From Mugil cephalus (Eukaryota): a DNA stretch of 64,000 nucleotides. The position numbers were made by a program, and so were the translations under genes. Under the pieces are notes generated by a model that was not told where the DNA came from, searched no databases, and saw only the letters and a list, made by a program, of their open reading frames with translations. The stretch lies in NCBI RefSeq assembly GCF_022458985.1, contig NC_061789.1:11479707-11543706 (forward strand), in the 5' to 3' direction. Shown piece after piece: positions 20,351 through 48,453 of this stretch; within the stretch, counting starts at the first letter, position 1; each line of letters begins with the position of its first letter.

Positions 20351-20502
20351 AACTAATGGAGCTGTAGGTACTTGGAAAAATTTTATTTTCCTCCAAAAAT
20401 ATTTATACGTTCATCCCACTCGGGGAAGTTTGACGCAGTCCAGAAATAGTAGAAACAGTTTAAGCTGCGTGTGGCTGACTTCTCTAACTTCTCAGTGAGG
20501 AG

Positions 20503-23500: not shown

Positions 23501-23657
23501 GGTTAACGAGAGGAGCTTTTAACGAGCTTGGGAGAGGTGCAGAATCAGACGCACAACAACCCACACAGGAAGGATAATCGTTTCAACATGTCATGCCATC
23601 TTGCAGGAATACATCGTGCACGAGCGAATACTGCTGCAAAACCTACTCACCGGGACG

Positions 23658-23688
<31 letters not shown>

Positions 23689-25120: not shown

Positions 25121-25252
25121 TCACGGTGCTGAACCCTGTCCCAACCCTGGCAGCGCCCCCAGCAGGCCGTTGGCCGTAGTGAAGAGGTTTATGGGAGACG
25201 AGCCATCCGTGATGAGGGTGGACTTGAGCCCCAGAGCCTGGAGCATCTTCAC
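25121..25252 (-). CDS. mvp: mvp copy 1, exon 16 (last; stop at 25121-25123)
   Basis: Acceptor cctacag|GTG. Encodes [43 protein letters not shown] (human ...[32 protein letters not shown]...). An AATAAA signal on the minus strand lies at about 25015-25020. Confidence 0.85.
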
Positions 25253-25368
25253 CTGTAGGAAACAAACCACTGTGAGTTTAAAATCCTGCACAAAGTCAAG
25301 GTACTTCTAATGAGCCGCTTTACGTCCTCTCTGAAGTAGATTTTAATTTCTAGTTTTTGGTACGGTAC

Positions 25369-25557
25369 CTGCAGCTCTGGTCCGGCTCTGGCGATCTCCT
25401 TCAGCGTGTCACTGCCCAGACTCTCCACCAGCTTCTTGAAGCGGGCACTTTCGATTTGAGCCAGACGCTCCTGCTTCTCCACCTCCAGATTATCCATCTC
25501 CTTCTTATAGTTGAGCTCCTGCTCACGCGCCTTCGCCAGGCGCTGGAGCTCCGCCTC
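25369..25557 (-). CDS. mvp: mvp copy 1, exon 15
   Basis: Acceptor gtgtgcgcag|GAG, donor CAG|gtaccg. Encodes EAELQRLAKAREQELNYKKEMDNLEVEKQERLAQIESARFKKLVESLGSDTLKEIARAGPELQ. Confidence 0.85.
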
Positions 25558-27029
25558 CTGCGCACACACACAGAAAAAAAAAAAACACAGATGAAAACAA
25601 ACTTCTGATTAAATCATTTTGGTGACCGACATGCTGTAGAGATGAAAGTCATATGTACTTAACAGAGCTTTAAGGTTGGCATTAAACAAAACGTGCAGCC
25701 GATTATCCCAGCGCATGCTGTTGTGGGCGGAAGTAGAGATGGTAGTGTATGTTATCGAGCTTACTGTCCGGTGGGAAGACAGAGTTGAGGAGGCTAATGA
25801 GCGCGAGAGAGCTCGATATTCAGAGATGGCAGCAGAAGCTGAGCAGCGAGGGTAGAGCGACTGCGTGCGGCCGGTGGAGGTGGGTTGCCGTGGAACCCAC
25901 CATCTCCTGTGTGAGCTGGGCATTCGTGGGAGAGAACAAAGGGTGACATGTCCCTGGCAGCAGAGCGATCAAGTGAGTGGCTGTGGCTGAGGAGGAAACA
26001 TGCTAGCTGGGGAGCATGCTGGGGAGCAAGGTTAGGCTAGCTGGTTTTAGTAGTTAGTAGTAGGGCTAAGCTAATCTCTCGGTTGAAAGTTACACGGTTG
26101 TGTGGTGGCAGCATGGAGAGGGGGCCCCCCAAGACACTGGAACTTACTGTTCAGCCTTCTTGAGGTGTCGTGGGCCTTAACAAAACATCGGTGAAGGGAG
26201 GTGCCCACTTGAAAACCCCAAAGATGTGTCGCGTACTGCCTATTGCCGTTGGCTAGGCTAGTTAGATGGCATCTTCTTGTTGGTTGCTAACCGGTAGCTG
26301 ACAGCGAGCCTGCTGGTCGGTTTTTCAGTTGGACTGGGCTTCTAAAGTCAGCCCTGGATGCCTAAATATTGAGCAAAAAATGACCATACTCCATCAGTTT
26401 ATTTATAAGAAGGAAAATAAAGCAATGCAAGCAATTTTCTACCTAAATAAAATTGCCAAAAAGCAAAAAATTTCCCCTTGCTGACAAAAAGAACTTTTTT
26501 TTAATTAGTATTTTTTAAAGAAATTTCTTTGAAATGCCCTAAAACATTTAACACCTCGGCAGGCTTTCTGTGAGCTCCAAACCACCACGCGTCCCAACAT
26601 CCACAGGCCCAATTTCCCTATTTTTGATATGAAAATTAGGTTGGTTGGAAATTTAGTTTTTGTAGTAGCGACACAGCCAAGTCGTTTCAGCATCTCAGAG
26701 GCGTGCAGTAAGAGACATGCAGCAGCCCACAGTTATCCACTGAAAAGCTGCCAACACCGGCCGGGTTCTTATTCTTGTACTTACCATTACCATTTCGTTA
26801 CAGTACTCCATCCTCTTTTCTACCTACAAAGTCTTCTGAAATCCAGTTCCTCAAATTATTCTCCTCCTCCTCTTGCGTCTACTCCTGTTGATTCTATCAC
26901 TCCCAGCTCCTCCTTTTTTCACAGCTGCTAATTATTGGCATCTCTACATCAGTCGTACCAGCAGCTCCGGTGTATTTTATTGAGCTCATGCGTGGAGTTT
27001 TATGCTAAGAACAGTAAGAGTGGGCGTAC

Positions 27030-27156
27030 CGCCTCGATCCTTTGAGCCTCTGCCTTCAGTTTGGCCTCGCTGACTGCCGCCTCTCCCTGGATGCGAGCCG
27101 CCTCAGCGCGGGACTGAGCCTCCGCCTTAGCAGCTCCCGTGCTCTCCACCGCAGCG
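27030..27156 (-). CDS. mvp: mvp copy 1, exon 14
   Basis: Acceptor tgtgtttcag|C, donor GCG|gtacgc. Encodes (S)[42 protein letters not shown]. Confidence 0.85.
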
Positions 27157-27269
27157 CTGAAACACAAGCGCCATCGATTCACTGGGACATTTATACTAAA
27201 CAGTTGCATGGACTCAGCCTCATCAGGCTTCATAGTTTAACATCATTCAACATCAAGGTGTGCATTCAC

Positions 27270-27386
27270 CTGAGCGCCTCCAGCTCCAGCAGTTCCTTCC
27301 TGGCTTTCTCCGCCTGGGCCTGGTCGGTGATCTTCTGCCTCTCCAGCTTCCCCCGAGCCTCCTGCTCCAGACGCTCCGCCTCATGT
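27270..27386 (-). CDS. mvp: mvp copy 1, exon 13
   Basis: Acceptor gtgtgcag|A, donor AG|gtgaat. Encodes (R)[38 protein letters not shown] (human [38 protein letters not shown]). Confidence 0.85.
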
Positions 27387-27472
27387 CTGCACACCAACAA
27401 CACGTCATGAAGCCCGGCGGCTTTTCAGCAGCGCTAACCGCTCAAAATCTCAAACTTGTGTGTCTGTGTGAC

Positions 27473-27684
27473 CGTGCGGCCGCCTCCTGGGAGTTGGTGG
27501 TGATCTCGATGGCCAGCTGGACGCTCTTCTGCAGGGCGTCTCGGGTCCTCTGGTCGACAGGCTCCACGGACTGGATGTCCACGCTGCTGATCACCAAGTT
27601 GTTCTGTTTGAAGCAAAGGTTGGGGCGGATCGCCATCTTCTCGTCGAAGCCGAACACAGCGGAACAGATGATCCGGTTGGAGTT
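27473..27684 (-). CDS. mvp: mvp copy 1, exon 12
   Basis: Acceptor tcgtctgcag|AAC, donor CG|gtcaca. Encodes [70 protein letters not shown]. Confidence 0.85.
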
Positions 27685-27809
27685 CTGCAGACGAGACAGA
27701 ACTTAAGATTTAAGAAAGATGTTTCTCTGGAATAAAGGGATATAGATTTTGGTCCATTGTCTACAAACTAGTTCGTCATTTTTTTTAGTAAAAAAACAAA
27801 CACACTAAC

Positions 27810-27954
27810 CTTATGGAAATCATCAAACTGCACCGAGGCGACGGCTCCTCTGATCTTGGAAGCGATGGCTTTACAGGCATCTCCCACAAAGTCAGGAACT
27901 GAAAACAGAGTTGCTGCAGAAGCAGAGTCGGCCGGCAACTTGATGTCAAAGTGC
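27810..27954 (-). CDS. mvp: mvp copy 1, exon 11
   Basis: Acceptor ctcttcag|G, donor AAG|gttagt. Encodes (W)[48 protein letters not shown]. Confidence 0.85.
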
Positions 27955-28052
27955 CTGAAGAGGGAAACACAGTGAAGACCTGTGTTACAGATGATTGTGA
28001 TCATGAAATAGTAAAACCGGAGGTGTTTTCCGGCGTTGGACTGTGTGGTTAC

Positions 28053-28250
28053 CAGTTGTAGGAGAGCTGCAGCTGCAGGCGGGCGTGGTCCGCCGTCTCT
28101 ATGGTGATGATGTCAGTGAAGAAGTCTGGCCCCAGCAGGAGGCAGATGGCCTTGATGACGTTGGGCCTCTTCGGTTTGTCCCCGGACAGCGACAGCACGG
28201 TGAAATGCTCATCGGGTCCCAGCATCACCAAGTCCGGCCCAAACATCACC
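28053..28250 (-). CDS. mvp: mvp copy 1, exon 10
   Basis: Acceptor tgtctgcag|G, donor TG|gtaacc. Encodes (R)[65 protein letters not shown]. Confidence 0.85.
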
Positions 28251-28326
28251 CTGCAGACACAACACGATCAGCTCCTCTATCCAACCTCTACACCCAACAC
28301 CCACACAGTCAGGAGAGACGCCCCAC

Positions 28327-28562
28327 CTGGCTTTCTTCTCTCTGTAGTCGTACACCTGGACAGCGGCGTTGTGAGGGACCCTGTAGGAGACCACCCTGGT
28401 CTTCTCCCTCCGCCCGTCCTCTCCCATATTTTGGCGGTCGGAGCGGTCGGACAGCGGGTCGAGGCGGGCGGCCAGCAAGGCCTCGACCTTTGGAGGAAGC
28501 TCCTTCTCCCACAGCTCCTCATCCTGGGTCAGCATGTAGGTGTGACCGATCACCGCTCGCAC
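28327..28562 (-). CDS. mvp: mvp copy 1, exon 9
   Basis: Acceptor cctctcag|GTG, donor AG|gtgggg. Encodes [78 protein letters not shown]. Confidence 0.85.
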
Positions 28563-28633
28563 CTGAGAGGCCGACGGCACACGGTTAGCTCATAGTCACA
28601 TGAAGCCGGAGCAGAAAACCAGTTAGCTCGCAC

Positions 28634-28864
28634 CTTTCCAGTCTTGTTGTCCCTGACGTAGATCCCCTCGTTCTCGTCCAGGGGGATGGCCTCTTGCCTC
28701 AGCACCACCTCCACCGTGGCGGGGGGGACGTACTCGATGGGGCCCCGCAGCATCCAGCGGTCTCCGGGGCGACGGAGGATGCCGCTCCTCCGGGTGCGCT
28801 TAGGCCTGCTCTCCATGGCCCCCTCCTCTTCCTCCTCCTCCTCCTCGTAGTCCTGCTCCATGTG
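28634..28864 (-). CDS. mvp: mvp copy 1, exon 8 (carries a lineage-specific poly-Glu plus basic insertion)
   Basis: Acceptor tctctgccag|CAC, donor AAG|gtgcga. Encodes [77 protein letters not shown] (human ...[57 protein letters not shown]). Confidence 0.85.
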
Positions 28865-28924
28865 CTGGCAGAGAGAATGGGGCAGAGACAGGAGGGGGGT
28901 GGAAATAAAGGTTAATGTGGGGAT

Positions 28925-28975
28925 GCATTGGCGTGGAGGAGGAGAAGGAGGAGGAGATGGAGGAGGAGAGGGGAT
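28925..28975. repeat. 12-bp minisatellite (ggaggaggagaa)n in mvp intron 7, 3 units here versus 6 in the paralog at 46525-46612
   Basis: Unit 1 reads ggaggaggagaa ggaggaggagat ggaggaggagag. Unit 2 has ggaggaggagaa five times, then ggaggaggagag. Confidence 0.8.
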
Positions 28976-30371
28976 CGGAGGAAGGCACTGATTAAAAACA
29001 ACAGAGTAAGTGAAAAAATAAAGCGATGGAGTAATAAAAAGAAGAAGAAATGAACGGAGGGACGTCGGGAGAGAAACAAAGAAAAGTGTGTGATGAGTTA
29101 GCAGGAAGAAAAAATGAGGACTTTGACACGATGTCACCTGACCCACAGGTGTGTCTCACCTTTCTACCTACATACCAGAGCTGCTTTAAGAACGTACAGG
29201 TGGTCTTTCTTCCAGACACGCCTCTGTGAAAGCACTATTTGATTTTCTAATCTCCTCCACCTGCTGCTTGAGGACCGGTTACACAAGATCAATGGTGCAA
29301 TGTACATCTCCTCCACCTGTCACTGCAGCAGCTCCTCACACAGAGGACGGACGGGGTTAATGTGTTTGAGCTGGGCGTTGACTGTCAGATTCCTGTAGTT
29401 CACCGGGACAAAGTGCGCAAGGGGCGAATGGCAGGGTGAAGAAATCTAAGCCACGCTGCAGTGAAATATGACAGCAGCTCAACCAAGATGCTCCTGCTAC
29501 ATAACAATCAGGGTGACCCCTCTGCTTCCCACCACTTAGTGACAGCAATGTGTCACTCAGTCGTTTAACAAGCTCCAACCCCAAAATGCAGCGTTTTTGT
29601 GCAAATATCGAATCAAAAAGTGTCAAAAAGTCTACATTTTAATTAGACTTGATGTCAATTTCATTGTTCTTTTTATTGTGTTAAACTTTTCTTATTTTTA
29701 ATAGGGCTGGGCGGTATGACAAAAAAATTATTTTTTTGTTCACAACATTTTCTACGGGTTGAGAGAGGAGTTAATACAGGAGATTGACTGAGGATGGACT
29801 ATTTTACTGCGATTATGGGTAAATGTTGGTGTGGAAATTTACAGCTCAGAGATAAAAAACTAATTAAATGTCATTAATATAACATGAAGAAACAAGGACA
29901 ATTATTGTTTCATTTATTTTTACATATTTATTCATATTTAAACTACTATATCTGTAATGTTCATAGCAGCGCAGATGGCTACTGTAATAGTTGTAGTCTG
30001 CGCGCAACATTTTTTTGTCATTCATAAAAGATAAAATTGGGGACACTTCCTGGGATCTCGGTGATAATAAAACCAACTTGAGGCTTTAAACCTGTTCTTG
30101 TTGCAGCTTCGTGTTTCCTGAACTTTTAGCCTGTCTGGCGTCCTGTTGTTTCGTGCAGCTTTACGTACGCATGATGAACCACATTGGTTTCAGCTTGTTA
30201 CACTGTAGTAGATTTGATTCAGTTATTGAAAACAAATCAAACCAACACAGTGGTAACATCTGAATCGCCACCGGGGCCACTTTGTCCCGGAAAAGTTGGA
30301 CCCCGAGGTCAAAAAGTTTGAAGACACCTGCTCTATAGGACGTCCACTTTTCCGAATCAGTCTGCCCTCAC

Positions 30372-30497
30372 CTCCTCGGTGTCGGTGAAGGCCTCCACGG
30401 CTCGCAGCACCAGGCCCTCCTCCTCCGACAGCACGTACACGTCCTGGATGCCCTGTTCAAGATGCTCACCCGGCTGCAGGAAAAAGGAGCGCTCACC
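30372..30497 (-). CDS. mvp: mvp copy 1, exon 7
   Basis: Acceptor cctccttccag|GGT, donor GAG|gtgagg. Encodes [42 protein letters not shown]. Confidence 0.85.
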
Positions 30498-30586
30498 CTG
30501 GAAGGAGGTAGATTAGTGTTTTTTTTGATTGATTGGGTATGTGACTTTACTATAAACACTAAACACTGTATCCGGAGGCATCTCAC

Positions 30587-30823
30587 CTTCACCACCTTCT
30601 TCTTTCCCAGCTGAGGCTTGCCGTCGTGCCCGACCGGGTCCAGGATCACGCAGTACTGCCTGCTGCTCAGGGTGGTCACGTTTACCACGCCCACCACCTC
30701 CTCCGCCACAGAGGGGATGTGGGCCTCCCTGTCGGCCATGGTGACCAGCCACTCCTCCCCCGTGCGGCGGTCCTGTCCGCCGGCGTCTTTGAAGGGCCGC
30801 AGGGCGCGGACGTGCAGCGCTTT
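30587..30823 (-). CDS. mvp: mvp copy 1, exon 6
   Basis: Acceptor gcgcctccag|AAA, donor AAG|gtgaga. 237 nt encoding [79 protein letters not shown]. Confidence 0.85.
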
Positions 30824-31191
30824 CTGGAGGCGCAGCAAAGATATGTCAGACGGTCCGCAGCTGTTTGTGAACGCACCATAATTGAAGTTTCTAAGAGCTG
30901 CGTCCAGGCACATATATAATTAGAAGTGTCTCCGTCATAAAGATGCTGCTGAGACGTTAATAACCACTGTTTTATCTACAATCCTGTTCTCAACCGTTCT
31001 GTTGTTTATTCACTTCTGGGTTTGTAAAATAGGAAGTAGCAAGAAATCTATGTCACAGTTCCGCAGTTTTTTTATACATGTCACCTGAGCCACATAGTGG
31101 TAACCACATGATTCTTACTTGGCCGTGAAAACAGGAAGTGGCCTCTATCTTTACAGCAAGTGGAAACAGAAACAGATGAAGCGGAGAGTCA

Positions 31192-31286
31192 CCTTGTCGG
31201 TGAGGATGAAGGCGTTGACGATGTCGATGACCTCCTCGTGAGCACCTGGAAGGTACGCGCCCACTTTGCAGACCAGCCACTCGTCG
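31192..31286 (-). CDS. mvp: mvp copy 1, exon 5
   Basis: Acceptor aaatgtgcag|GC, donor AAG|gtgact. Encodes (G)[31 protein letters not shown]. Confidence 0.85.
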
Positions 31287-31437
31287 CCTGCACATTTAGC
31301 CACGAGTGGGAAAAAAAAAACGTGACAGGAAGGAGAAGAGAAAGAAACCTTAAATCTTTGTCTTTCTAATCTATTGTTGGTATTATGTGAAGTGTTCTGT
31401 GTGAAGAAAGTTTGATTTTTGTGTGTGTGTCTGTTAC

Positions 31438-31569
31438 CTGTGACCCTCTGGACTCCGCCTCGGTCTTTGCCCTCCTTGCGAGCTCTCAGCCTGATGGCCT
31501 GGTTCTCTCGGATCACTGTGGCCTTGATGGTCTCCAGAACCGCCACCTCCTTCCTGGGGATGTAGGTCC
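31438..31569 (-). CDS. mvp: mvp copy 1, exon 4
   Basis: Acceptor ttcttccag|GG, donor ACAG|gtaaca. Encodes (G)[43 protein letters not shown]. Confidence 0.85.
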
Positions 31570-31821
31570 CTGGAAGAAAACCAGATGTTGTTAGTGGGGA
31601 TCTTTGGGTCCTATGGGTTGAGGGGAGGGGCCTCTGTGGGTCATCTCACAGATACTTGATCAGTTTGGGATCTGGTGAATTGGATTTCAGGAACGATGGG
31701 GCTGATCTGTTCAGAAATCTGGAGGAAAAATATTCCTTGGGGAAAACATCAAGAATAAAAGAAAGTGACCAAAAGGCTTGAAGATGCACTGAGAGTTTTT
31801 CCAGGAGCTGTGGGATCCCAC

Positions 31822-31945
31822 CTGGTCCTTCGAACAACCACTCGTCTCCGGCCACTCTCTTCTCCCCTCCCGCCTCCTCAAAGTCCAGCAGAGCCTGCAG
31901 ACGCAGCGCCGTGTCCGGATACACGATCTGCAGAGGTGTCGGATC
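31822..31945 (-). CDS. mvp: mvp copy 1, exon 3
   Basis: Acceptor ttctccttcag|GAT, donor CCAG|gtggga. Encodes [41 protein letters not shown]. Confidence 0.85.
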
Positions 31946-32073
31946 CTGAAGGAGAAAAACAAACAAACAAAAAAAAAGATTACCTTTCTCAACGTAGTTT
32001 CTCTTTATTTAAAGACTGACTTTTATTCTAATCTTTTGATTACAATAATCTAAAGCCTGGTTTCCATGCCAAC

Positions 32074-32269
32074 CTTCTGGATCTCCTCTCCTGGGTACAG
32101 AGGGAACGGGTCCTGCGTCAGGCGGATCTCCAGGTCGGCGTGACGCAGCTTGGCTTGACCCGATTGGTCAAACAAAACCTGGCCGTTGTCGTCACGGGCA
32201 ACGGGGTTGGCGATAACGCAGTAGTGACGCGGTGCAACCATCGTCATACGAACCGGTAAAAAGAGCACT
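32074..32269 (-). CDS. mvp: mvp copy 1, exon 2
   Basis: Acceptor ttttttaacag|A, donor AAG|gttggc. Encodes (R)[65 protein letters not shown]. Confidence 0.85.
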
Positions 32270-32408
32270 CTGTTAAAAAAGAAAAAAAAGAAACTGATGT
32301 TAAATTCTGATTTGAATAAGAGATGTGAGACACTGACTGGAAATGGAGCTGAAACTACATGAAAGACAATCAAACTCCAGCAGCTACAACACAGAGAGTC
32401 TGTCCCAC

Positions 32409-32527
32409 CTCTCATTGTCCTGGCGGATGTAGGTGAGTGGTCCAACCTCCACGCGGGCGATGTTGGTGTTCTGGTCCAGGACGTGGATATAGTGATGAGG
32501 AGGGATGCGGATGATGGATGCATCCAT
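32409..32527 (-). CDS. mvp: mvp copy 1, first coding exon (start codon ambiguous)
   Basis: Donor GAG AG|gtggga. The ATG at 32525-32527 gives [39 protein letters not shown] (human [41 protein letters not shown]). In-frame ATGs also lie upstream at 32537-32539 (MEAL, not conserved in the other copies) and 32570-32575 (MMSKK...). A candidate acceptor cctgtgcag sits at 32588-32596, so the true start may be [12 protein letters not shown]..., which would put the exon's upper end near 32575-32587. Confidence 0.7.
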
Positions 32528-32639
32528 CAGGGCTTCCATCTCAGGCCCACGGTTTCCACCCTTCTTAGACATCATGGCAAAGAAACGCTGCACAGGAACA
32601 GAAACATGTGGAGGGCTTTAGGTCCACGCCATGTACGGA

Positions 32640-33180
32640 TTCCACTGAACACCCCGACCCCTACGGCTAAACTGACTGTTGATACGAACACAGACAAAAG
32701 AAGCAAGTACGAACAGACAAAGAATGCAAAAAAAAAAAGATTCAAAAAGACACAAAAAAAGACCCCAAACACACAAAAAATTATCATCAAGTTGCAAAAA
32801 GCAGCCACAACGACACAAATAACCAGAAACTGACAAAATACAATGACAACAGATGAAAAAAACAAAACTCAATAATGAAAATACAATGTGGGCACATAAA
32901 ACACCCACAAAGATAAAAACACAAAAAAACAAAACAACTTCAAAGATGCAAAAGAAGCACACCTGGTAATATCTAAAAAACAACCTCAAAGTTGAAAAAA
33001 AATAAGATCTCAGACACAAAAACAACCACAAGAAAGTAGAAAACCCCACAAAGATGCACAAAACAACCACTACAAAGCCAAAAAAGATCTCAAAGACAAA
33101 AGAACAACCAAAAACACATAGAAATGCAACAGAAGGAGAAAAAAATATGTAAAAACAACAACAACAAAAAACATTAAAGG
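32640..33180. repeat. A-rich low-complexity tract (degenerate CAAAAA/ACAAAA repeats) immediately 5' of mvp exon 1
   Basis: Visible as caaaaagacacaaaaaaagaccccaaacacacaaaaaatt... and it generates the spurious F/L-rich minus-strand ORFs 32572..33070. The paralogous tract is at about 50290..50830. Confidence 0.7.
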
Positions 33181-34780
33181 GTCTTTATTCTTTTATGCGC
33201 CAATATTCATCATTGTGAATGAATGTGTGGATGTTCTGTCTCCATATCTCAACCACGAGTCTAACTGATGACAGATCAATGGACGACAGATTAACTGAGT
33301 TTATAAGACAAGCTCTGGTTTCATTCATTTTTATCAGTTTAAAGTCAACTAAACAAAGTTGAGCGTGTCCACTTGGGTGAACACTGAGATCACAGAGAAG
33401 TGCAAGAAAAAAAAAAAAGAACAGAGACACACCTTGGTGCAAAGTCAACCCCAGACGGGTTTATCTCGTTTATCTTGTGACACAATCGACGATTGTTGCT
33501 GATTGAATAGTACGAGTCAGTTTACTGAGCATCAGAACGACATCTGAGCGTCAGCAAGACACAATCTGGGGCCAGTAACCAATGGGACGGTCGATGGGAA
33601 AATAAGACGGGGAAATAATGTGATGGACGTCTGTTGCAAATGCGTCAAGAGAAAATGTCATGAATCAGCTCTTCTCACCGCTATCATAAAAGTCTTTAAG
33701 AATACATGCAGCTCATGTGACAAACACGAATCAGTGCATCAATAGAAAAATCAAAAAGACTTAATCGGAATCTACCTGGACAACGTATGTGCATGTAAAC
33801 ACGTAACTCCGACTAAAATCAGAGTTCTCTTTATCCAATTAAGACGCCCAGATAATGTGATTGGAATTCGGTTTTCTCTGCCATGTATACGCCTTAATCA
33901 GACTACAATCGGATAACGCATGTTGCTCCACAACCGCTGCACTGGCACGTGACCCCTGAACAAAAACATTGAAGAAAGCCGATCGCAGAAGAAGTTATTA
34001 GATTTTTTTTTCGGTGCATGTAAACTCGGACAAGGACTGTAGTCAGAAAGTCGAGTTTTGAGCATAGCTCGGTTAAGCTCTGCATGTAAATGCACTGACT
34101 GTTTGGACTCAGCCCATTCAAGGCTGCATGGCTCCTTTTGTTCCCCAGACAAAGAAGGTCTTTGAACTCAACCTCCCAGCAGCCTTCACCTTTTTACACC
34201 TAGGTGTGAAACCTCCACTCTTGACCCCCATTGGTCACTGTGTGGCCAAAACCTCTGAGGTCATCGAGCCAATAAAAGGGGGGGGGGCGCTTCCCCTTAC
34301 TCTCTTCTCTTAAGCTGTATTTCCATACACAGCCTACCTCTACACCACTGCGCACCACAAACTTTAAATCGACATTTCCGTTGATAGAAGGTGGGCCAAA
34401 CGAGGCCAAAGGGATACTTTTCCAGGACTTAAAAGTACCTCCTCTGTGGTTGGGCCGAAGTAGGTGAATTGGAGTTGAAAATGTGAAGTAAAATGCTGCT
34501 TACTACTGATTGGTTAGAAGAAAAAAAAAATTGTCACGATGCAGCGCCAGGTACAAAGCTGGATGTTTTGACCAGACGGACACTCCTAAGCAATGGAAAA
34601 GGTAGTTAAAAAAAGGTGGTGAGATGTGGAGTTGTTTAGCGGTAGGCTGCATATGGAAATCTGGGCCTAGTTAGCTTATCTTGCACATAACTTGACCAAG
34701 CATAGAATACTTCAACCTTGCCAATGTATGTATTGATTGAAACTGGTAAAATACTTTAGCTCATGACTGTTGTCTATAGA

Positions 34781-34952
34781 CCAGTGTTTCCCAGTCCTGC
34801 ATGTTTTAGATGTTTTCCTCCTCCACCACACCTGATTCAAATGAGTGGCTCGTTATCAGGCCACTGATCATTTGAATCAGGTGTGTTGGAGCAGGAAACA
34901 TCTAAAACATGCAGGGCAGTGTTCCTCGAGGACCAGGATTGGGAAACACTGG
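34781..34952. mobile_element. hAT-like palindromic MITE (172 bp) with 8-bp target-site duplication
   Basis: Termini CCAGTGTTTCCCAGTCCTG...CAGGATTGGGAAACACTGG are perfect inverted repeats, and the whole element is a near-perfect hairpin. It is flanked by TCTATAGA (34773-34780) and TCTATAGT (34953-34960). The paralog at 52385-52556 has a TIR point change (CCGGTG). Confidence 0.7.
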
Positions 34953-35442
34953 TCTATAGTCTATAGTCAGTAAACCTGTAACTTGAATTTGAAAATCGTG
35001 GTGAACAAAGGACACACCTTTGTTCCCCTCACATCACATGTTGGCCTTAGCGTCCATCATGGAGACCAGTTGTTTGTAAACCTCTTTGTCTCTGGACCTT
35101 TCGCATTGTTTCCCTCACATAGACACTTGGCTTCTTCACACTAACACACACATATCCACATGTGTACATAGTTAAGTGTTTAAAGTTTTGTTATTTCAGT
35201 TTTTAGATGTGTCGGATAAAATTCCTTGAAACTTGAAACGTTGCTCATCTGTTAATGTTGTAGAGGAGTGAATGTGCCAACCTCTACACTGTAGAACCCT
35301 TGAATCCTTCAAATTTGCTACTATTAATAAGGTAATATTGTTTGTGATTATTAAGTTAATTATTAAGTTAATTAACAACATTCAGTGTTAATAGTTAGCA
35401 AACCCACCTTTATGAGACAGATTTGTTAAATAACTGAATTTT

Positions 35443-35565
35443 GATTAATTTCTGACTTTTAATTCTTCATATGTCAGTGATGGCATCACAATTTTTCATA
35501 AAAAAATAAAATAAAATAACATAAAAACACTGACATATAAAGGGTTAAAAGTCAGAAATTTATCA
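35443..35565. repeat. Imperfect palindrome, MITE-like (~37-bp arms at ~85% identity around a ~48-bp A-rich spacer)
   Basis: Left arm gattaatttctgacttttaattcttcatatgtcagtg; the right arm cactgacatataaagggttaaaagtcagaaatttatc is its reverse complement. The deletion junction of truncated copy 3 (38722) maps to the inner edge of the right arm. Paralog at about 53043-53165. Confidence 0.55.
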
Positions 35566-36197
35566 AACTTTTGGTATTATACTTAGTAAAGAAGTGGATT
35601 AAATGATTCAGGTTAAAAAGTAGAAAAAAATATTGAATTAAATATTATATTAAATTAAAATATGCTATATAATATGCTTCAGGGCATTTTTGTCCCTTAA
35701 TGGTAACAACGTAATAATTTTATAATCAGGTATGAGGATTAAATTCTCCCTGAAGCAGAATAAATAGGTGTGTATGACTTTTACTTGGAAACCCTCCCTC
35801 TGAGGTCATTAAACAGCTGATTCATGCAAAGGCAAAAATACACTCCAAAGAGCCTGCTCCTTTCTAAACCATGGTCCGGACGAATCTCAACAGACAGTAC
35901 GCATCTTTACATTGCATCCTGGTTTACACTCAACACCAGTAAACAGCAAACAAAAAAAAGAAACTGCCAAACCACTTCCGCATGATATACCTCAACGACA
36001 AACTGCATGAGAAATAGTGTTCATGTAAATTCCCAGGCCTCGCAAAAGACAAACATTGACATTTATACGATTTACAGGCTTTAGGATTTACATAAATGTT
36101 TCATATTTATTTTTAATATTTAACCCGTGAATCCAAAGGGAGATTGCAGAGAAGAGTTGTGGAGAAGACGCACTCGGAAATTGCTCCAGCGTCTTAC

Positions 36198-36355
36198 CTG
36201 TGCTCTTTGCGGCTGTACGGGAAGACGTGCGGCCGAATCCGGGCGGAAAGAGTCAATTTTAAGAAAATGAGAATAAGTTCACAGAGTAAGAGGCCGCAGA
36301 CGGAAAGGAGATTCGTCTGACGGGAAATGTGTGTCGTGTGGGCGTCAGCAACAGT
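36198..36355 (-). promoter_or_regulatory. mvp: Candidate mvp promoter and non-coding first exon (element Y, copy Y1)
   Basis: The minus strand reads ...GCCGCACGTCTTCCCGTACAGCCGCAAAGAGCACAG|gtaagacg with a consensus donor. Just upstream lie CACGTG, TGACGgg and GC-rich motifs. It sits 3.6 kb 5' of the mvp exon 1 acceptor, and human MVP also has a non-coding first exon. The element recurs four times, always 5' of an mvp copy or fragment. Confidence 0.35.
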
Positions 36356-36900
36356 CACGTGGGTAAAAAAATAAATATAGAAAATAAATGAGAAAACATT
36401 TATGAGACAACATAAGAAACGTAGACAGTCTTCAGATACTTATATTATACGGTCTCCTTATGAATAAAAGAAAAGTTCTGAGTAATTTTTAATTATCGAG
36501 CAGCGATTAGTTAACGTGACTTCCGCTTTCGAGATCCGGCGGAATAAAGACATTTAACAGCCTACTGAAAATAAATTTCCTTTTATGAACTTGCACTTGG
36601 AATATTTAGTAACTTACAATTGGAACATTTATTAAATAACAATTTTTTAAAAATATAGTTGAATTTTATGTTTTTTTTTTAATTTTTATTAAAATGTTTA
36701 TTATTCTTATCTGTCATTTTATTATTCTTACTTATGTGATTATTTCCAAAAATATATATACATTGACATTATTTTTAAAATATTATCTATCATTATTATT
36801 TATAATTTGTTATTGTTTTTTAAAATATACATTTTGTTTAATCTCACGTACCCCCTGGAGTACCTTCAAGTAGTATATACGGTCAATGATACCCCCAGGA
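36356..36900. repeat. AT-rich element A', second copy of the mvp 3'-flank element at 23740-24260 (also at 41340-41860 and 53950-54480)
   Basis: Shared string gaaatatagaaaataaat...aacgtagacagtcttaagatac...cgagcagcgattagctaacgtgacttccgctttcgagatccggc...gaacttggacttggaatatt... The Y1|A' boundary at about 36355 marks the older tandem-duplication junction. Confidence 0.7.
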
Positions 36901-37084
36901 CATTTTGAGAACCATGATCTCCATACATCCACTGAATATCACCCTACTGTATACCCACTGTTGTAGTTGATTTTAAGTAGTGCAAGTATTTTAAACTTTG
37001 TAAAGAAAGTAGAACGTTCCATAAATAAAAAAAATAAAAAAAAAAGAGAGAAAACACCTCAGTAAAGTGTCAGTTTTTAAAATT

Positions 37085-38722
37085 GTTAAGTATACCAGCA
37101 GCAGTACTCGATGGGGCCCCGCAGCATCCAGTGGTCTCCGGGGCGACGGAGGATGCCAATCCTCCCCCGTGCGGCGGTCCTGTCAGCAAAGATATGTCAG
37201 ACGGTCCAAAGGAAGGAGAAGAGAAAGAAACCTTAAATCTTTGTCTTTCTAATCTATTGTTGGTATTATGTGGAGTGTTCTGTGTGAAGAAAGTTTGATT
37301 TTTGTGTGTGTGTCTGTTACCTGTGACCCTCTGGACTCCTCCTCGGTCTTTGCCCTCCTTGCGAGCTCTCAGCCTGATGGCCTGGTTCTCTCGGATCACT
37401 GTGGCCTTGATGGTCTCCAGAACCGCCACCTCCTTCCTGGGGATGTAGGTCCCTGGAAGAAAACCAGATGTTGTTAGTGGGGATCTTTGGGTCCTATGGG
37501 TTGAGGGGAGGGGCCTCTGTGGGTCATCTCACAGATACTTGATCAGTTTGGGATCTGGTGAATTTGATTTCAGGAACGATGGGGCTGATCTGTTCAGAAA
37601 TCTGGAGGAAAAATATTCCTGGGGGGAAAACATCAAGAATAAAAGAAAGTGACCAAAAGGCTTGAAGATGCACTGAGAGTTTTTCCAGGAGCTGTGGGAT
37701 CCCACCTGGTCCTTCGAACAGCCACTCGTCTCCGGCCACTCTCTTCTCCCCTCCCACCTCCTCAAAGTCCAGCAGAGCCTGCAGACGCAGCGCCGTGTCC
37801 AGATACACGATCTGCAGAGGTGTCGGGTCCTGAAGGAGAAAAACAAACAAACAAACAAAAGATTACCTTTCTCACAGTAGTTTCTCTTTATTTAAAGACT
37901 GACTTTTATTCTAATCTTTTGATTACAATAATCTAAAGCCTGGTTTCCATGCCGACCTTCTGGACCTCCTCTCCAGGGTACAGAGGGAACGGGTCCTGCG
38001 TCAGGCGGATCTCCAGGTCGGCGTGACGCAGCTTGGCTTGACCCGATTGGTCAAACAAAACCTGGCCGTTGTCGTCACGGGCAACGGGGTTGGCGATAAC
38101 GCAGTAGTGACGCGGCGGAACCATCGTCATACGAACCGGTAAAAAAAGCACTCTGTTAAAAAAGAAAATAAAAAAACTGATGTTAAATTCTGATTTGAAT
38201 AAGAGATGTGAGACACTGACTGGAAATGGAGCTGAAACTAAATGGAAGACAATCAAACTCCAGCAGCTACAACACAGAGAGTCTGTCCCACCTCTCATTG
38301 TCCTGGCGGATGTAGGTGAGTGGTCCGACCTCCACACGGGTGATGTTGGTGTTCTGGTCCAGGACGTGGATGTAGTGATGAGGAGGGATCTGGATGATGG
38401 ACGCATCCATCAGGGCTTCCACCTCAGGCCCACGGTTTCCGCCCTTCTTAGACATCATGGCAAAGAAACGCTGCACAGGAACAGAAACATGTGGAGGGCT
38501 TTAGGTCCACGCCATGTACGGACTCCACTGAACACCCCGACCCCTACGGCTAAACTGACTGTTGATACGAACACAGACAAAAGAGGCAAGTACGAAGAGA
38601 CAAAGGATGCAAAAAAAAGATTCAAAAAGACACAAAAAAAATATCATAAAGATGCAAAAAGCAGCCACAACGACACAAGTAACCTGAAACCGACAAAATA
38701 CAATGACAACAGATGATGGAAA
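37085..38722 (-). pseudogene. mvp: Truncated mvp 5' fragment (copy 3): exons 1-4 with introns, ending in a mosaic junction
   Basis: Exon 1 is 38292..38411 ([10 protein letters not shown]...), exon 2 38152..37957 (VPPRHYC), exon 3 37829..37706 ([13 protein letters not shown]), exon 4 37452..37321. Intron 4 continues down to 37212. Then 37105-37157 copies an exon-8 interior piece, 37158-37184 an exon-6 interior piece and 37185-37207 an intron-5 piece, followed by the AT-rich element. Retained intronic pieces argue against a retrocopy. Confidence 0.8.
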
Positions 38723-39568
38723 AAGAACACTGACATATAAAGGGTTAAAAGTCAGAAATTTATCAAACTTTTGGTATTATACTTAGTAAAGAAGTGGATT
38801 AAATGATTCAGTTTAAAAAGTAGAAAAAAATATTAAATTAAAATTCTCCCTGAAGCAGAATAAATAGGTGTGTGTGACTTTTACTTGGAAGATCTCCCTC
38901 TAAGGTCATTAATGCAAAACAGCTGATTCATGCAAAGGCAAAAATACACTCCAAAGAGCCTGCTCCTGTCTAAAACACGGTCCGGATGAATCTCATCAGA
39001 CTGTACACATCTTTACATTGCATTCTGGTTTTGTTGTATATTGATGCGCTGAAGAAAGAAGTGATCACCGCTTAAAAAGGTTTATTTACAAGAAAGAACA
39101 ATGTCAAAAACTCAGCCGAATCTGAGAGGGCTTCTCGTTCAGCTCCACCATACACACACAAAACTTATGTCCTTATATCTGGTTAGTTTTAAGATCTGGC
39201 ATTTGGTAAATGACTTTTTGACCTCAAACATACACACTTTATACACACTTCACATACACAAAAGGGAAAGAAGAGAAAAACAAGAAGATAATTTACTACA
39301 GTTTCCACTCAACATCCGCAAACCAACAAAAGAACCTGCCAAACGACTTCCGCATGATAAACCTCAACGTCAAACTGCATGAGAAATAGTGTTAATTAAA
39401 GTCCCAGGCCTTGCAAGAGACAAACATTGACATTTATACGATTTACATGCTTTAGGATTAACATAAACGTTTCATCTTTATTTTTAATTTTTAACCCGTG
39501 AATCCAAAGAGAGATTGCAGAGAAGAGTTCTGGAGAAGATGCACTTGGAAATTGGTCCAGCGTCTTAC

Positions 39569-39780
39569 CTGTGCTCTTTGCGGCTGTACGGGAAGACGGG
39601 AAGACGGTCGGCTGCTCAAGCGAATCCGGGCGGAAAGAGTCGATTTTAAGAAAACGAATAAAAGTTTACTGAGCAAGAGGCCGCAGACGGCGAGCGAGGG
39701 GGAGATTGTTCTCTGTTACCGGAAGAGGAGGAGAGGTCGCGTCAGTTTCTGGGTAGTAGCAGTGACGTAGGACGTATTTC
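39569..39780 (-). promoter_or_regulatory. Element Y copy Y2, 5' of truncated mvp fragment copy 3 (candidate promoter plus non-coding exon)
   Basis: Shares the CAAAGAGCACAG|gtaagacgctgg donor, with upstream ccggaag (ETS-like) and gtgacgtaggacgt (CRE-like). Carries a 30-bp insertion relative to Y1. Confidence 0.3.
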
Positions 39781-40910
39781 AGTAGCTCAGGAAATCTCCT
39801 AATCTCCTAATTTATAATCAGTTAGTCCCTTAGAATAAATATCTGTAAGTTATTTATTTTATTATTATTATTTTTAAAAACTTTATATAACAATGGCTTA
39901 CTCATTTTTGACACTTTACTCATAATTAACATTTTAAAAAGCCTTTATTCTGGCACAAGAGCACACAACAAGATTAAGGGTATTACTTCTGACAAATATT
40001 CAATCAGTAAATACGAACAGATGACAGACCACATACAGTCTTAAAACGTCAATGAATTATATAAAAGATGTCAATAGTAGTGTCATGTGAAAGAAATGAT
40101 GCATTCAAAAATTAAAATAGTGCACTTGGACTGATGACGCATGGGTAAAAACTTAGTTTAGTTTATTTCGAACATGTTAAAAGCAAACAAAATAATCATA
40201 CACCATACAAGGGACATAAAGAACCTAAACAACAAAAAGAAAATGAAAAATAAAGTTAAAATTACAGATTTTACATGACCAAAAAGAAGTGGAAGTACAG
40301 ACTTATTTTATCCCACCCCTTCTTAATAGATCAATAGTATTTGTATATTTGTATAATCATAGCAATATTCTGTTTTGAAATCTGTGTTTGTGCCTTCTTC
40401 ACTGCTGCACAGGTCTTCCACCCTTCTCCCCATTCATGTGTCGAGGCTTTTTAAGGTGTCTCCTAAAGCCAATGATTAGTTCATTTTCATTTATTTGGAC
40501 TACTTATGGGCCCAAACAAAGAATGACAGTATGTATAGACCATTGGGAAAATCTGGATATCCTAAAGCAAAATGCCAGGCATCACTTTATATTCAGTTTG
40601 AAGTAGCTCAGTCTCAGTAAAAAACTTAAGAAAAAATAAAACACAGGCTCAGGATAACATTATAGATATTTAATGGGTAAACAAACAATTCAGCTGAGAG
40701 GACAAAGAATGCACAAAACAAGGGGGAATATCAAAAGAAAAGCACGCACACAGATAACATCCAGCTCCAGTTTAACCCTTACATGTTTAATTCGTTTTAT
40801 AAACCACTATTTTAATGTTTTTCTGTCAAAGATATTGTTTATCCAACTAGAACAGAGTAAAATAGAATATTTCTCAATATGAAGCATTGTGTGAAAGGTT
40901 TAAAATGATT

Positions 40911-41100
40911 GCTTAAAGAGAAGTTAAATAAGGTGACACAAAATAACGTAAAACTTTTAATGAAGTTCATCATGTTTATCGTTTCAATGCTGGCCAGTGG
41001 AGTTCATCAGGGAATGATGTTGGGTCTTCTTTATCTTCATTTTTTTTCTATGAACTTCTAATTATTTTTTTCAAAAGAAGTTCTTCATGATTAAATCTTC
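40911..41100 (+). mobile_element. Degenerate reverse-transcriptase fragment from a LINE/non-LTR retrotransposon, just inside the unit 1 | unit 2 boundary
   Basis: Encodes ...SMLASGV(H/P)QGMMLGLLYL..., a decayed version of the RT motif GVPQGSVLGPLLF. The paralogous ORF 58465..58647 reads MLASGVPQGMMLGLLYLQFF. Confidence 0.45.
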
Positions 41101-44100
41101 TAATTTAAGGTTATGAACCACCGATGAGCTACAGTTCATCTTTCCAATGGTTCAGCTAAGAAACAAAATCTATGTTTTATATCCAAGATTTGTCTTGAGA
41201 GGATTTCTACTCTTTTTCTGTAAAGGATAATCATTTCACCATGTCACGCCATCTTGCAGGAATTCATCGTGCACGAACGAATACTGCTGCTGATTTTTTT
41301 TTTAAATTACTCCGACGTCGCTAGCCATAGCTAGAGGGCACGTCTGATAAATAATAAAAAATAGTAATAAAAAAGAAATACAGAAAATAAATTAATGAAT
41401 ATACAACATAAGAAACGTAGACAGTCTTAAGATACTTCTATCATACAGTCTCTTTATGAATAAAAGAAAAGTTCTAAGTAATTTTTAATTATCGAGCAGC
41501 GATTAGCTAACGTGACTTCCGCTTTCGAGATCCGGCAGAATAAAGACGTTTAACAGCCTACTGAAAATAAATTTCCTCTTATGAACTTGGACTTATTTGG
41601 TAACTTACAATTTATTAAATAACTATTTTAAAAAAATATTACTGAATTTGAATTTTATGTGTTTTTTAAAAAAATATTTATTAAAATATTCATTATTCTT
41701 ATCTATCATTTTATTATTCTTATTTGATGATTTAAAAAAAATGTATACATTGACATTATTTTTAAAATATTATCTATCATTATTATTCATAATTTGTTAT
41801 TGTTTTTTAAATATACATTTTGTTTAATGTCACGTACCCCCTGGAGTACCTTCAAGTAGTATATACAAAAAAGAGAGAGAAAACAACTCAGTAAAGTATC
41901 CGTTTTTAATATTGGTAAGTATACCAGCAGCAGCAGCAGCAGCACACAGGTCTTAACGTAGGAACAACAGCACTTTTTAAGGCAAAGAGAAAAACTACAC
42001 AACCTCCACCACAGAAGTAGAAATGCTCAATACAGACTATACGTTTATATTTGTTAATTTCTGTGGCTATAGTGCAAAGCAGAAAGGGAAATCTTTGGCT
42101 TTTAGGTGTCAACAAAGTAAACAAAAAGTTATGAAGTTTTTAGGCACAATTATTCCATTAACAGCATCAGTTCACGGACACATCACATGTTGTCAGTTCT
42201 GCTCTGTCAAAACTCAGAGTCTCATTTCTTCTGTAAAGTAATGATCAGTAACAGTGAACATCGCGTCTACGTTGTACAACCTGGAGAAAATAAACCAAGG
42301 ACGTGAGTCTGCTTCCCTGCTCCGTCTGAAAGTGTGTCATCTAATAAACAAACAGCAAATTTTATTTTTAGAGGTCTGACATTTTTATGCAGAGAGTGAA
42401 ATGCGTTTTAATATTAGACGACCCACTTTTATGTAAGAACAATGAAACAGTTCCTTTTATTTCTCATGCTGAGTTTTGAACATAGAATTTTGATTGTAGA
42501 GAAGCAGTGAATCTAAGGATTCAGTAACTTCCTGGTTATATAAACTGGACAAACTTTGTTTAATTTTTCTGATCCAAGCATAAGATAGAAAGTATAGAAA
42601 AAAGGGTTTTCTTTTAAGCTTGTTTGTTTATTTTAATTGTTCACGCTGTACATTTGCATGAACATAATTCTAGTAAACATTACTTGTGGCGTGGTCAGCT
42701 TTTTTATTTTTATATTTCCCCTCCCCTTCCTCACGGTGCCGAACCCTGTCCCAACCCTGGCAGCGCCCCCAGCAGGCCGTTGGCCGTAGTGAAGAGGTTT
42801 ATGGGAGACGAGCCATCCGTGATGAGGGTGGACTTGAGTCCCAGAGCCTGGAGCATCTTCACCTGTAGGAAACAAACCACTGTGAGTTTAAAATCCTGCA
42901 CAAAGTCAAGGTACTTCTAATGAGCCGCTTTACGTCCTCTCTGAAGTAGATTTTAATTTCTAATTTTTGGTACGGTACCTGCAGCTCTGGTCCGGCTCTG
43001 GCGATCTCCTTCAGCGTGTCACTGCCCAGACTCTCCACCAGCTTCTTGAAGTGGGCACTTTCGATTTGAGCCAGACGCTCCTGCTTCTCCACCTCCAGAT
43101 TATCCATCTCCTTCTTATAGTTGAGCTCCTGCTCACGCGCCTTCGCCAGGCGCTGGAGCTCCGCCTCCTGCGCACACACACAGAAAAAAAAAAAAACACA
43201 GATGAAAACAAACTTCTGATTAAATCATTTTGGTGACCGACATGCTGTAGAGATGAAAGTCATATGTACTTAACAGAGCTTTAAGGTTGGCATTAAACAA
43301 AACGTGCAGCCGATTATCCCAGCGCATGCTGTTGTGGGCGGAAGTAGAGATGGTAGTGTATGTTATCGAGCTTACTGTCCGGTGGGAAGACAGAGTTGAG
43401 GAGGCTAATGAGCGCGAGAGAGCTCGATATTCAGAGATGGCAGCAGAAGCTGAGCAGCGAGGGTAGAGCGACTGCGTGCGGCCGGTGGAGGTGGGTTGCC
43501 GTGGAACCCACCATCTCCTGTGTGAGCTGGGCATTCGTGGGAGAGAACAAAGGGTGACATGTCCCTGGCAGCAGAGCGATCAAGTGAGTGGCTGTGGCTG
43601 AGGAGGAAACATGCTAGCTGGGGAGCATGCTGGGGAGCAAGGTTAGGCTAGCTGGTTTTAGTAGTTAGTAGTAGGGCTAAGCTAATCTCTCGGTTGAAAG
43701 TTACACGGTTGTGTGGTGGCAGCATGGAGAGGGGGCCCCCCAAGACACTGGAACTTACTGTTCAGCCTTCTTGAGGTGTCGTGGGCCTTAACAAAACATC
43801 GGTGAAGGGAGGTGCCCACTTGAAAACCCCAAAGATGTGTCGCATACTGCCTATTGCCGTTGGCTAGGCTAGTTAGATGGCGTCTTCTTGTTGGTTGCTA
43901 ACCGGTAGCTGACAGCGAGCCTGCTGGTCGGTTTTTCAGTTGGACTGGGCTTCTAAAGTCAGCCCTGGATGCCTAAATATTGAGCAAAAAATGACCATAC
44001 TCCATCAGTTTATTTTTAAGAAGGAAAATAAAGCAATGCAAGCAATTTTCTACCTAAATAAAATTGCCAAAAAGCAAAAAATTTCCCCTTGCTGACAAAA

Positions 44101-45432
44101 AGAACTTTTTTTTAATTAGTATTTTTTAAAGAAATTTCTTTGAAATGCCCTAAAACATTTAACACCTCGGCAGGCTTTCTGTGACCTCCAAACCACCACA
44201 CGACCCAACATCCACAGGCCCAATTTCCCTATTTTTGATATGAAAATTAGGTTGGTTGGAAATTTAGTTTTTGTAGTAGCGACACAGCCAAGTCGTTTCA
44301 GCATCTCAGAGGCGTGCAGTAAGAGACATGCAGCAGCCCACAGTTATCCACTGAAAAGCTGCCAACACCGGCCGGGTTCTTATTCTTGTACTTACCATTA
44401 CCATTTCGTTACAGTACTCCATCCTCTTTTCTACCTACAAAGTCTTCTGAAATCCAGTTCCTCAAATTATTCTCCTCCTCCTCTTGCGTCTACTCCTGTT
44501 GATTCTATCACTCCCAGCTCCTCCTTTTTTCACAGCTGCTAATTATTGGCATCTCTACATCAGTCGTACCAGCAGCTCCGGTGTATTTTATTGAGCTCAT
44601 GCGTGGAGTTTTATGCTAAGAACAGTAAGAGTGGGCGTACCGCCTCGATCCTTTGAGCCTCTGCCTTCAGTTTGGCCTCGCTGACTGCCGCCTCTCCCTG
44701 GATGCGAGCCGCCTCAGCGCGGGACTGAGCCTCCGCCTTAGCAGCTCCCGTGCTCTCCACCGCAGCGCTGAAACACAAGCGCCATCGATTCACTGGGACA
44801 TTTATACTAAACAGTTGCATGGACTCAGCCTCATCAGGCTCCATAGTTTGACATCATTCAACATCAAGGTGTGCATTCACCTGAGCGCCTCCAGCTCCAG
44901 CAGTTCCTTCCTGGCTTTCTCCGCCTGGGCCTGGTCGGTGATCTTCTGCCTCTCCAGCTTCCCCCGAGCCTCCTGCTCCAGACGCTCCGCCTCGTGTCTG
45001 CACACCAACAACACGTCATGAAACCCGGCGGCTTTTCAGCAGCGCTAACCGCTCAAAACCTCAAACTTGTGTGTCTGTGTGACCGTGCGGCCGCCTCCTG
45101 GGAGTTGGTGGTGATCTCGATGGCCAGCTGGACGCTCTTCTGCAGGGCGTCTCGGGTCCTCTGGTCGACGGGCTCCACGGACTGGATGTCCACGCTGCTG
45201 ATCACCAAGTTGTTCTGTTTGAAGCAAAGGTTGGGACGGATCGCCATCTTCTCGTCGAAGCCGAACACAGCGGAACAGATGATCCGGTTGGAGTTCTGCA
45301 GACGAGACAGAACTTAAGATTTAAGAAAGATGTTTCTCTGGAATAAAGGGATATAGATTTTGGTCCATTGTCTACAAACTAGTTTGTAATTTTTTTTTTA
45401 GATACTCTGGGTAAAAAAACAAATGCACTAAC

Positions 45433-45577
45433 CTTACGGAAATCATCAAACTGCACCGAGGCGACAGCTCCTCTGATCTTGGAGGCGATGGCTTTACAGG
45501 CATCTCCCACAAAGTCAGGAACTGAGAACAGAGTTGCTGCAGAAGCAGAGTCGGCCGGCAGCTTGATATCAAAGTGC
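45433..45577 (-). CDS. mvp: mvp copy 2, exon 11 (His to Arg at the conserved FDDFHK motif)
   Basis: Copy 2 reads GAT GAT TTC CGT AAG (FDDFRK); copy 1 and human have FDDFHK. A 28-bp intronic deletion lies just 5' of this exon, at about 45580. Confidence 0.75.
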
Positions 45578-45650
45578 CTGAAGAGGGATGATTGTGATCA
45601 TGAAATAGTAAAACCAGGAGGTGTTTTCCGGCGCTGGACTGTGTGGTTAC

Positions 45651-45848
45651 CAGTTGTAGGAGAGCTGCAGCTGCAGGCGGGCGTGGTCCGCCGTCTCTAT
45701 GGTGATGATGTCAGTGAAGAAGTCTGGCCCCAGCAGGAGGCAGATGGCCTTGATGACGTTGGGCCTCTTCGGTTTGTCCCCGGACAGCGACAGCACGGTC
45801 AAATGCTCATCGGGTCCCAGCATCACCAAATCCGGCCCGAACATCACC
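45651..45848 (-). CDS. mvp: mvp copy 2, exon 10 (Phe to Leu: [12 protein letters not shown] against [12 protein letters not shown])
   Basis: Copy 1 has cacggtgaaatg, copy 2 cacggtcaaatg. Phe is conserved in human (GPEEQFTVLSLS). Confidence 0.75.
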
Positions 45849-48217: not shown

Positions 48218-48453
48218 CTTCACCACCTTCTTCTTTCCCAGCTGAGGCTTGCCGTCGTGCCCGACCGGGTCCAGGATCACGCAGTACTGCCTGCTGCTCA
48301 GGGTGGTCACGTTTACCACGCCCACCACCTCCTCCGCCACAGAGGGGATGTGGGCCTCCCTGTCGGCCATGGTGACCAGCCACTCCTCCCCGTGCGGCGG
48401 TCCTGTCCGCCGGCGTCTTTGAAGGGCCGCAGGGCGCGGACGTGCAGCGCTTT
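48218..48453 (-). CDS. mvp: mvp copy 2, exon 6 carrying the frameshifting 1-bp deletion (at about 48387-48391)
   Basis: See the gene-level entry. The copy 2 donor is also gtaaga where copy 1 has gtgaga. Confidence 0.5.

Follow-up and report, generated by a model that had tools for sequence, protein, structure and literature searches.

In the mvp (major vault protein) locus of Mugil cephalus, a shortened copy of the gene lacks a kilobase-sized segment that is present in the full copy, and one end of the missing segment abuts the arm of a palindrome. We asked how this junction arose and whether folding of the palindrome had a part in it. All positions refer to the window, the 64-kb stretch of DNA that was analysed at its full length. 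Because the gene lies on the minus strand, "upstream of mvp" corresponds to higher coordinates.

Organization of the locus

Translation of the minus strand between approximately 25,100 and 32,575 yielded the exons of the major vault protein (MVP), and in a protein search with a full-length MVP query the best matches by far were two M. cephalus isoforms, X1 and X3, of a "major vault protein-like" protein. The next species followed at 87-88%, and no other mugilid was identified. Self-comparison of the window revealed an apparent tandem duplication of 17.6 kb, with unit A at 23570-41217 and unit B at 41223-58775, the two units being 97-99% identical; the indels between them include one of ~55 bp at 34225-34279 and one of 5 nt in the palindrome spacer. 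Each unit contains one full mvp gene and, upstream of it (to its right), a shortened partial copy in which exons 1-4 are accompanied by promoter-proximal sequence, three very short exon fragments and a remnant of the 3' end. The shortened copy is collinear with the full unit over 36366-39690 in unit A and 53965-57227 in unit B. Sensitive alignment resolved it into the source pieces listed in Table 1, which are separated by six collinear junctions (J1-J6); the junction beside the palindrome is J5. Two stretches of the shortened copy, 36881-37033 (153 bp) and 39032-39317 (~287 bp), have no counterpart in the full copy. An origin as a retrocopy was considered and rejected, given that none of J1-J3 falls at a splice site, these junctions being either within exons or between an exon and the 3' region, and that introns 1-3 are kept.

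Table 1. Coordinates of the features at and around junction J5 (unit A unless stated otherwise).
Feature	Position	Strand	Description
Source piece of shortened copy	23756-24325		full unit; sensitive alignment
Source piece of shortened copy	28730-28791		full unit, 62 bp; sensitive alignment
Source piece of shortened copy	30748-30777		full unit, 30 bp; sensitive alignment
Source piece of shortened copy	30833-30856		full unit, 24 bp; sensitive alignment
Source piece of shortened copy	31327-32868		1,542 bp; exons 1-4, introns 1-3 and ~290 bp upstream; sensitive alignment
Source piece of shortened copy	35523-35642		~120 bp; sensitive alignment
Source piece of shortened copy	35741-35925		full unit; sensitive alignment
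Source piece of shortened copy	35946-36303		full unit; sensitive alignment
A/C-rich degenerate minisatellite	32700-33175	+	~20-23 bp units (TRF); upstream of mvp exon 1, spans the left breakpoint
Left microhomology copy	32864-32868	+	AAAAC in unit A; AAAAAC at 50504-50509 in unit B; inside the A-rich minisatellite
Missing segment	32869-35528 (or 32864-35523, given the microhomology)	+	2,660 bp; without counterpart in the shortened copy
Palindrome left arm	35429-35479	+	51 nt, 84% complementary to 35528-35578; full copy only
Palindrome spacer (loop)	35480-35527	+	48 nt, 60% A; last five bases, AAAAA (35523-35527), lie in the junction microhomology
Right microhomology copy	35523-35528	+	AAAAAC; the right arm begins at its C
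Palindrome right arm	35528-35578	+	kept in the shortened copy at 38728-38778, 51/51 identical
Piece missing at J6	35644-35737	+	~95 bp; microhomology ATTAAA(T); contains the left arm (35665-35684) of an inverted repeat
Young patchwork block	37104-38842	-	from 28730-28791, 30748-30777, 30833-30856, 31327-32868 and 35523-35642
Junction J5, shortened copy	38720-38728	+	AAAAAGAAC; unit-B equivalent 56323-56331, AAAAAAAAC
Palindrome, unit B	53033-53177	+	arms 53033-53083 and 53127-53177, spacer 53084-53126 (43 nt)

Junction J5 at base resolution

In the shortened copy, the sequence upstream of mvp is joined at 38720-38728 to CACTGACATATAAAGGGTTAAAAGTCAG, the innermost part of the palindrome's right arm; a direct join to this inner edge near 38722 had been claimed from the sequence alone, and the alignment placed it exactly. 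The size of the missing segment, which corresponds to 50510-53127 (2,618 bp) in unit B, bore out the ~2.7 kb given by the sequence-only reading, whereas the left boundary given there, 32830, proved to lie ~35 bp too far to the left. Besides the remainder of the minisatellite, which extends to ~33175, the segment comprises unique sequence, the palindrome's left arm and spacer, and a nested palindromic element at 34764-34969. Its flanks are collinear between the two copies, with 31327-32868 matching 37210-38727 and 35523-35642 matching 38722-38842.

The left flank in the full copy reads ...CAGATG(G)A(n)C, ending at 32868 in unit A and at 50509 in unit B, and continues with TCAAT. On the right, the flank runs ...ATAAAAAC and then ACTGACATAT, AAAAAC occupying 35523-35528. 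In the shortened copy, 38710-38738 reads CAGATGATGGAAAAA(G/A)AAC followed by ACTGACATAT. Both the six-way alignment and the three-line junction view placed the crossover inside a microhomology of 5-6 bp (AAAAAC) in both units. In the intact copy this direct repeat flanks the segment on either side, and the junction keeps a single instance, an A-run followed by C in both units, as in a microhomology junction, and with a shared A-run of this length the join is not blunt. The possibility that TGG at J5 is untemplated filler was rejected, because the full copy of unit B reads CAGATGG and TGG is thus common to both. The occurrence of the junction in unit B is a copy by descent via the 17.6-kb tandem duplication, not an independent event.

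The exact placement also moved the breakpoint away from the centre of the palindrome, or hairpin tip, where the sequence-only reading had put it: it sits at the boundary between the spacer and the right arm, 20-25 nt off the axis. Between 32869 and 36300, AAAAAC occurs at nine sites, seven of them inside the minisatellite and two beyond it (33962 and 35523). With so few sites beyond the minisatellite, a microhomology search that started from there would have had few landing places.

The palindrome

The palindrome itself, previously described with arms of ~37 bp, is real: this core (35443-35479 and 35528-35564) pairs at 33 of 37 positions, and the full arms extend over 51 nt, giving an imperfect palindrome of 150 bp in total with its symmetry axis at ~35503.5. 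Its predicted fold as single-stranded DNA reached -30.4 kcal/mol, compared with -12.1 +/- 2.4 kcal/mol for dinucleotide shuffles (z = -7.7), and a fold as good was obtained in 0 of 200 shuffles. No other close-spaced inverted repeat in the window is as long, and arms of at least 30 nt occur at only three loci per unit. The only other match of its left arm in the shortened copy is the kept right arm, reversed.

The term "MITE-like" describes only the shape of the palindrome. Like a MITE, it is a non-coding element of 150 bp with inverted-repeat ends of 51 nt; unlike a MITE, it is paired only over its arms, is present as a single copy in 64 kb and has no identified target-site duplication. A sensitive BLAST search found no further copies in the window, returning only its own homologous positions. 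The ends of the palindrome are not sharply defined (35429-35443 and 35565-35578), and on inspection no clean direct repeat that could be such a duplication was seen. In addition, a degenerate 31-nt pattern of the arm had no exact match among metagenome contigs. The nested palindromic element at 34764-34969 (52368-52573 in unit B), which had been called a "hAT MITE", has CAGTGTTTCCCA-type ends, with outer arms of 36 nt at 89% and inner arms of 31 nt at 94% and 20 nt at 100%.

Evidence for loss rather than insertion

Internal comparisons within the window, on which the polarity rests, support the view that sequence was lost from the shortened copy at J5, not inserted into the full one, in agreement with the earlier description of J5 as a deletion. 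The minisatellite crosses the left breakpoint, the A content being 49% in the 279 bp before it, 58% in the 307 bp after it and 30% in the remainder of the segment. The flanking minisatellite thus continues through the first 307 bp of the segment, which argues for a loss, since an inserted element would not be expected to start with the minisatellite of its flank. The arms of the palindrome point in the same direction. They differ from each other at 8 of 51 positions, whereas the kept right arm differs at 0 of 51 between the full and shortened copies. With the arms 16% diverged, the kept arm at 0% and the block that contains it at 1.7%, the palindrome is older than the copy, and the shortened copy would therefore be without the left arm and spacer through loss or skipping. 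The same counts led us to reject the formation of the left arm by inverted duplication after copying.

The opposite polarity would make the 2.66 kb an insertion into the full copy, consisting of a transposable element or nested elements with AAAAAC as target-site duplication and an A-rich tail, and would make the shortened copy the empty site. A direct repeat of 5-6 bp does flank the segment and is single in the shortened copy, and the segment ends in an A-rich, tail-like run, CATAAAAAAATAAAATAAAATAACAT. However, it opens with more of the flanking A/C-rich minisatellite, and a search for transposon termini found no terminal repeats of its own. An insertion would also need to terminate in an inverted duplicate of the target sequence next to it (51 nt, 84%), and this duplicate is 16% diverged, compared with only 1.7% for the empty-site block. 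We therefore regard an insertion as highly improbable.

Age of the shortened copy and its other junctions

Fixed differences between the full and shortened copies were defined as sites common to both units, and they revealed two ages within the shortened copy: ~1.7% in the inner block and ~9% in the flanks at 36366-37104 and 38845-39690 (Fisher p = 2e-18). The flanking values were 49 of 556 sites (8.8%) in the 3'-end pieces (E and E2) and 45 of 491 (9.2%) in the distal upstream piece (T); the inner values were 25 of 1512 (1.65%) in the exon 1-4 block (S) and 2 of 115 (1.7%) in the retained arm region (R). Comparison of unit A with unit B showed that the flanks are not faster-evolving. Coding constraint was rejected as the reason for the low divergence of the inner block, as the non-exon sites of S alone carried 17 fixed differences in 897 sites (1.9%), compared with 1.25% for exon sites. 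The contrast therefore implies that the inner block was derived from the full gene much more recently than the flanks. Its edges lie near J1 and J6 and are placed to within ~100 bp only (local Fisher p = 0.05 and 0.11); J5 is firmly inside it.

The microhomologies at J1 to J6 are 1, 10/11, 1, 0-1, 5-6 and 6-7 bp, in that order. The 10/11 bp at J2 read GCC(G/A)CTCCTCC, and the three exon-derived fragments (62, 30 and 24 bp) are joined head to tail at 37104-37210. The inverted repeat at J6 is 20 nt long and 85% complementary; its right arm (35748-35767) is kept and starts 3-10 nt inside the kept flank, and its fold is weak (-13.3 kcal/mol, z = -2.85).

This two-age pattern suggests either gene conversion bounded by old indels or patchwork synthesis in one step. 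It fits a history in which gene conversion homogenised the homology block enclosed by J1 and J6 in an old duplicate that already carried deletions at both, after which J2-J5 were deleted. The very short pieces together with the microhomologies lead us to lean towards patchwork synthesis over conversion followed by deletion.

Origin of junction J5

We consider it probable that J5 arose by a microhomology-mediated loss between two A-tracts, an ordinary event of known kind, to which the palindrome would have contributed as a facilitating factor at most. The palindrome would have been present first, and its left arm and spacer would then have been lost, either by end joining or replication slippage in the copy once it had formed or, by an alternative route, through a template jump during synthesis of the copy from the full gene. 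The AAAAAC run, which lies against the right arm by coincidence, would have determined the position of the breakpoint, and it is for this reason that we infer little more than a bystander role for the palindrome. Both ends of J5 lie in A-tracts, one in the A-rich minisatellite and the other in the A-rich spacer, and in human cancer genomes no other motif is as strongly associated with deletion breakpoints as A-tracts (PMC4937311). The likeness to microhomology-mediated deletion (MMEJ or slippage) extends from the AAAAAC at both ends, retained once, to the other junctions, which carry microhomology too; the differences are that the loss at J5 is kilobase-sized, above typical MMEJ deletions, and that one of its ends adjoins a palindrome arm. 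Two observations run counter to this mechanism, namely that two arm-edge breakpoints, those of J5 and J6, are only ~115 bp apart, and that the tiny kept fragments (24-62 bp) are awkward for independent stepwise deletions.

The arm-edge position was evaluated with a scan in which every position of a 12.4-kb reference was treated as a hypothetical breakpoint and the 30 nt kept beside it were assessed for complementarity to the 150 nt lost. The right breakpoint of J5 had an empirical p of 0.0068, which becomes ~0.08 when the 12 breakpoints of this copy are allowed for, and the right end of J6 had a p of 0.016 in the same scan. The other ten of the 12 breakpoints displayed no hairpin geometry (p > 0.05), so that four of the five other junctions are without it. 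Two of 12 breakpoints at p <= 0.016 correspond to a binomial p of ~0.016, calculated by hand and post hoc. If the junction of the original discovery is set aside, at least one hit of this kind would arise by chance among the remaining 10 breakpoints with a probability of ~0.15. A contribution of secondary structure to J5 is thus possible. For a causal role, the palindrome would have folded into a hairpin or cruciform during replication and been cut in the loop or at its edge, followed by resection of ~2.6 kb on the left side and microhomology-mediated end joining. The strong fold, which predicts a stable hairpin, speaks for this course of events, as do the breakpoint within 0-5 nt of the loop/right-arm boundary, the same geometry at J6 (left arm and spacer lost, right arm kept) with its 20-nt inverted repeat, and the enrichment of inverted repeats at human rearrangement breakpoints (PMC4937311, PMC4319165). 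As in systems of palindrome fragility (Mre11-Rad50/Sae2 or SbcCD, cruciform resolution; yeast Alu repeats, PMC8053094, PMC10164571), a strong-fold inverted repeat is located at the breakpoint, and one arm and the spacer are lost. Unlike in those systems, the break at J5 is at the stem-loop boundary rather than the apex and is very asymmetric about the axis, one side having lost 0-5 nt and the other 2.6 kb, and recurrence is not apparent here: J5 is a single event, and the instance in unit B is inherited. The spacer of 48 nt is not short and the arms, with 16% mismatch, are not near-perfect, which argues against efficient hairpin cleavage. In yeast, attack by the Mre11 complex is limited to hairpin loops of <9 nt (PMC8053094), fragility declines with the distance and divergence of the arms (PMC10164571), and palindromes with long spacers and imperfect arms were much less fragile in experiments (PMC8053094, PMC10164571); in contrast to the inverted Alu repeats studied there, arms of 51 nt at 84% with a 48-nt spacer fall outside the range of efficient cleavage. 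Moreover, the position of the breakpoint is explained equally well by the only nearby AAAAAC site. We therefore consider breakage of a folded palindrome unlikely as the origin of J5. Of the earlier proposal that a hairpin or cruciform induced the break, the position at an arm edge stands, whereas the cause, with one event and a corrected chance of ~0.08, does not follow from it. If recurrence at the arm edges of inverted repeats held true throughout this fish genome, it would constitute natural evidence for structure-induced breakage with long spacers and imperfect arms.

A single MMBIR/FoSTeS-type event could also have produced the whole young block: five or six times, synthesis on the full gene would have jumped forward at a microhomology, the jump at J5 landing in the single-stranded loop of the palindrome. 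We entertain this account tentatively and hold it to be rather unlikely. The MMBIR model accounts for complex rearrangements in which short templated pieces occur together with microhomology (PMC2621351), and the shortened copy resembles such rearrangements in having several collinear microhomology junctions (six, with 0-11 bp) between short templated pieces (62, 30, 24 and ~120 bp) at a duplicated locus. It differs in having no inverted or out-of-order segments and in being an evolutionarily fixed product rather than a de novo copy-number variant. The inner pieces are equally young (~1.7-3% divergent, compared with ~9% for the flanks), and this equality is compatible with one event but not diagnostic of it; the same pattern would be expected from gene conversion followed by stepwise deletions, and the coarse placement of the block edges weighs against a one-step origin as well. 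The use of the loop as a landing pad would be pure inference.

The shortened copy as a 5' module of mvp

J5 is of small general significance: it is a clean example, resolved to the base, of a kilobase-sized loss between two A-tracts of a young gene duplicate, and a palindrome arm adjoins one of its ends. The local interest is that mullet mvp has a duplicated 5' module, which is used as alternative first exons in the NCBI annotation. In tblastn searches, isoform X1 mapped exon by exon to the full copy (25169-32575), whereas isoform X3 (P0122) drew its exons 1-4 from the shortened copy (38458-37316, minus strand) and, from exon 5 onwards (from ~31290 downwards), used the same downstream exons of the full copy as X1. 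The four exons of the shortened copy are intact and in frame, and the partial duplicate may act as an alternative promoter and 5' exon module of mvp. A more inclusive scenario would have one replication-repair event build the copy, including a jump into the loop of the folded palindrome, the product then being kept as an alternative promoter and four-exon module (isoform X3) and amplified by the 17.6-kb duplication; this combination appears to us distinctly unlikely.

Around the poly-glutamate exon of mvp, both units contain an inverted low-complexity pair rich in CTC/GAG (28809-28973 and 46407-46621). The GAG-rich arm of this pair is longer in unit B, and similar tracts are found at 20239-20361.
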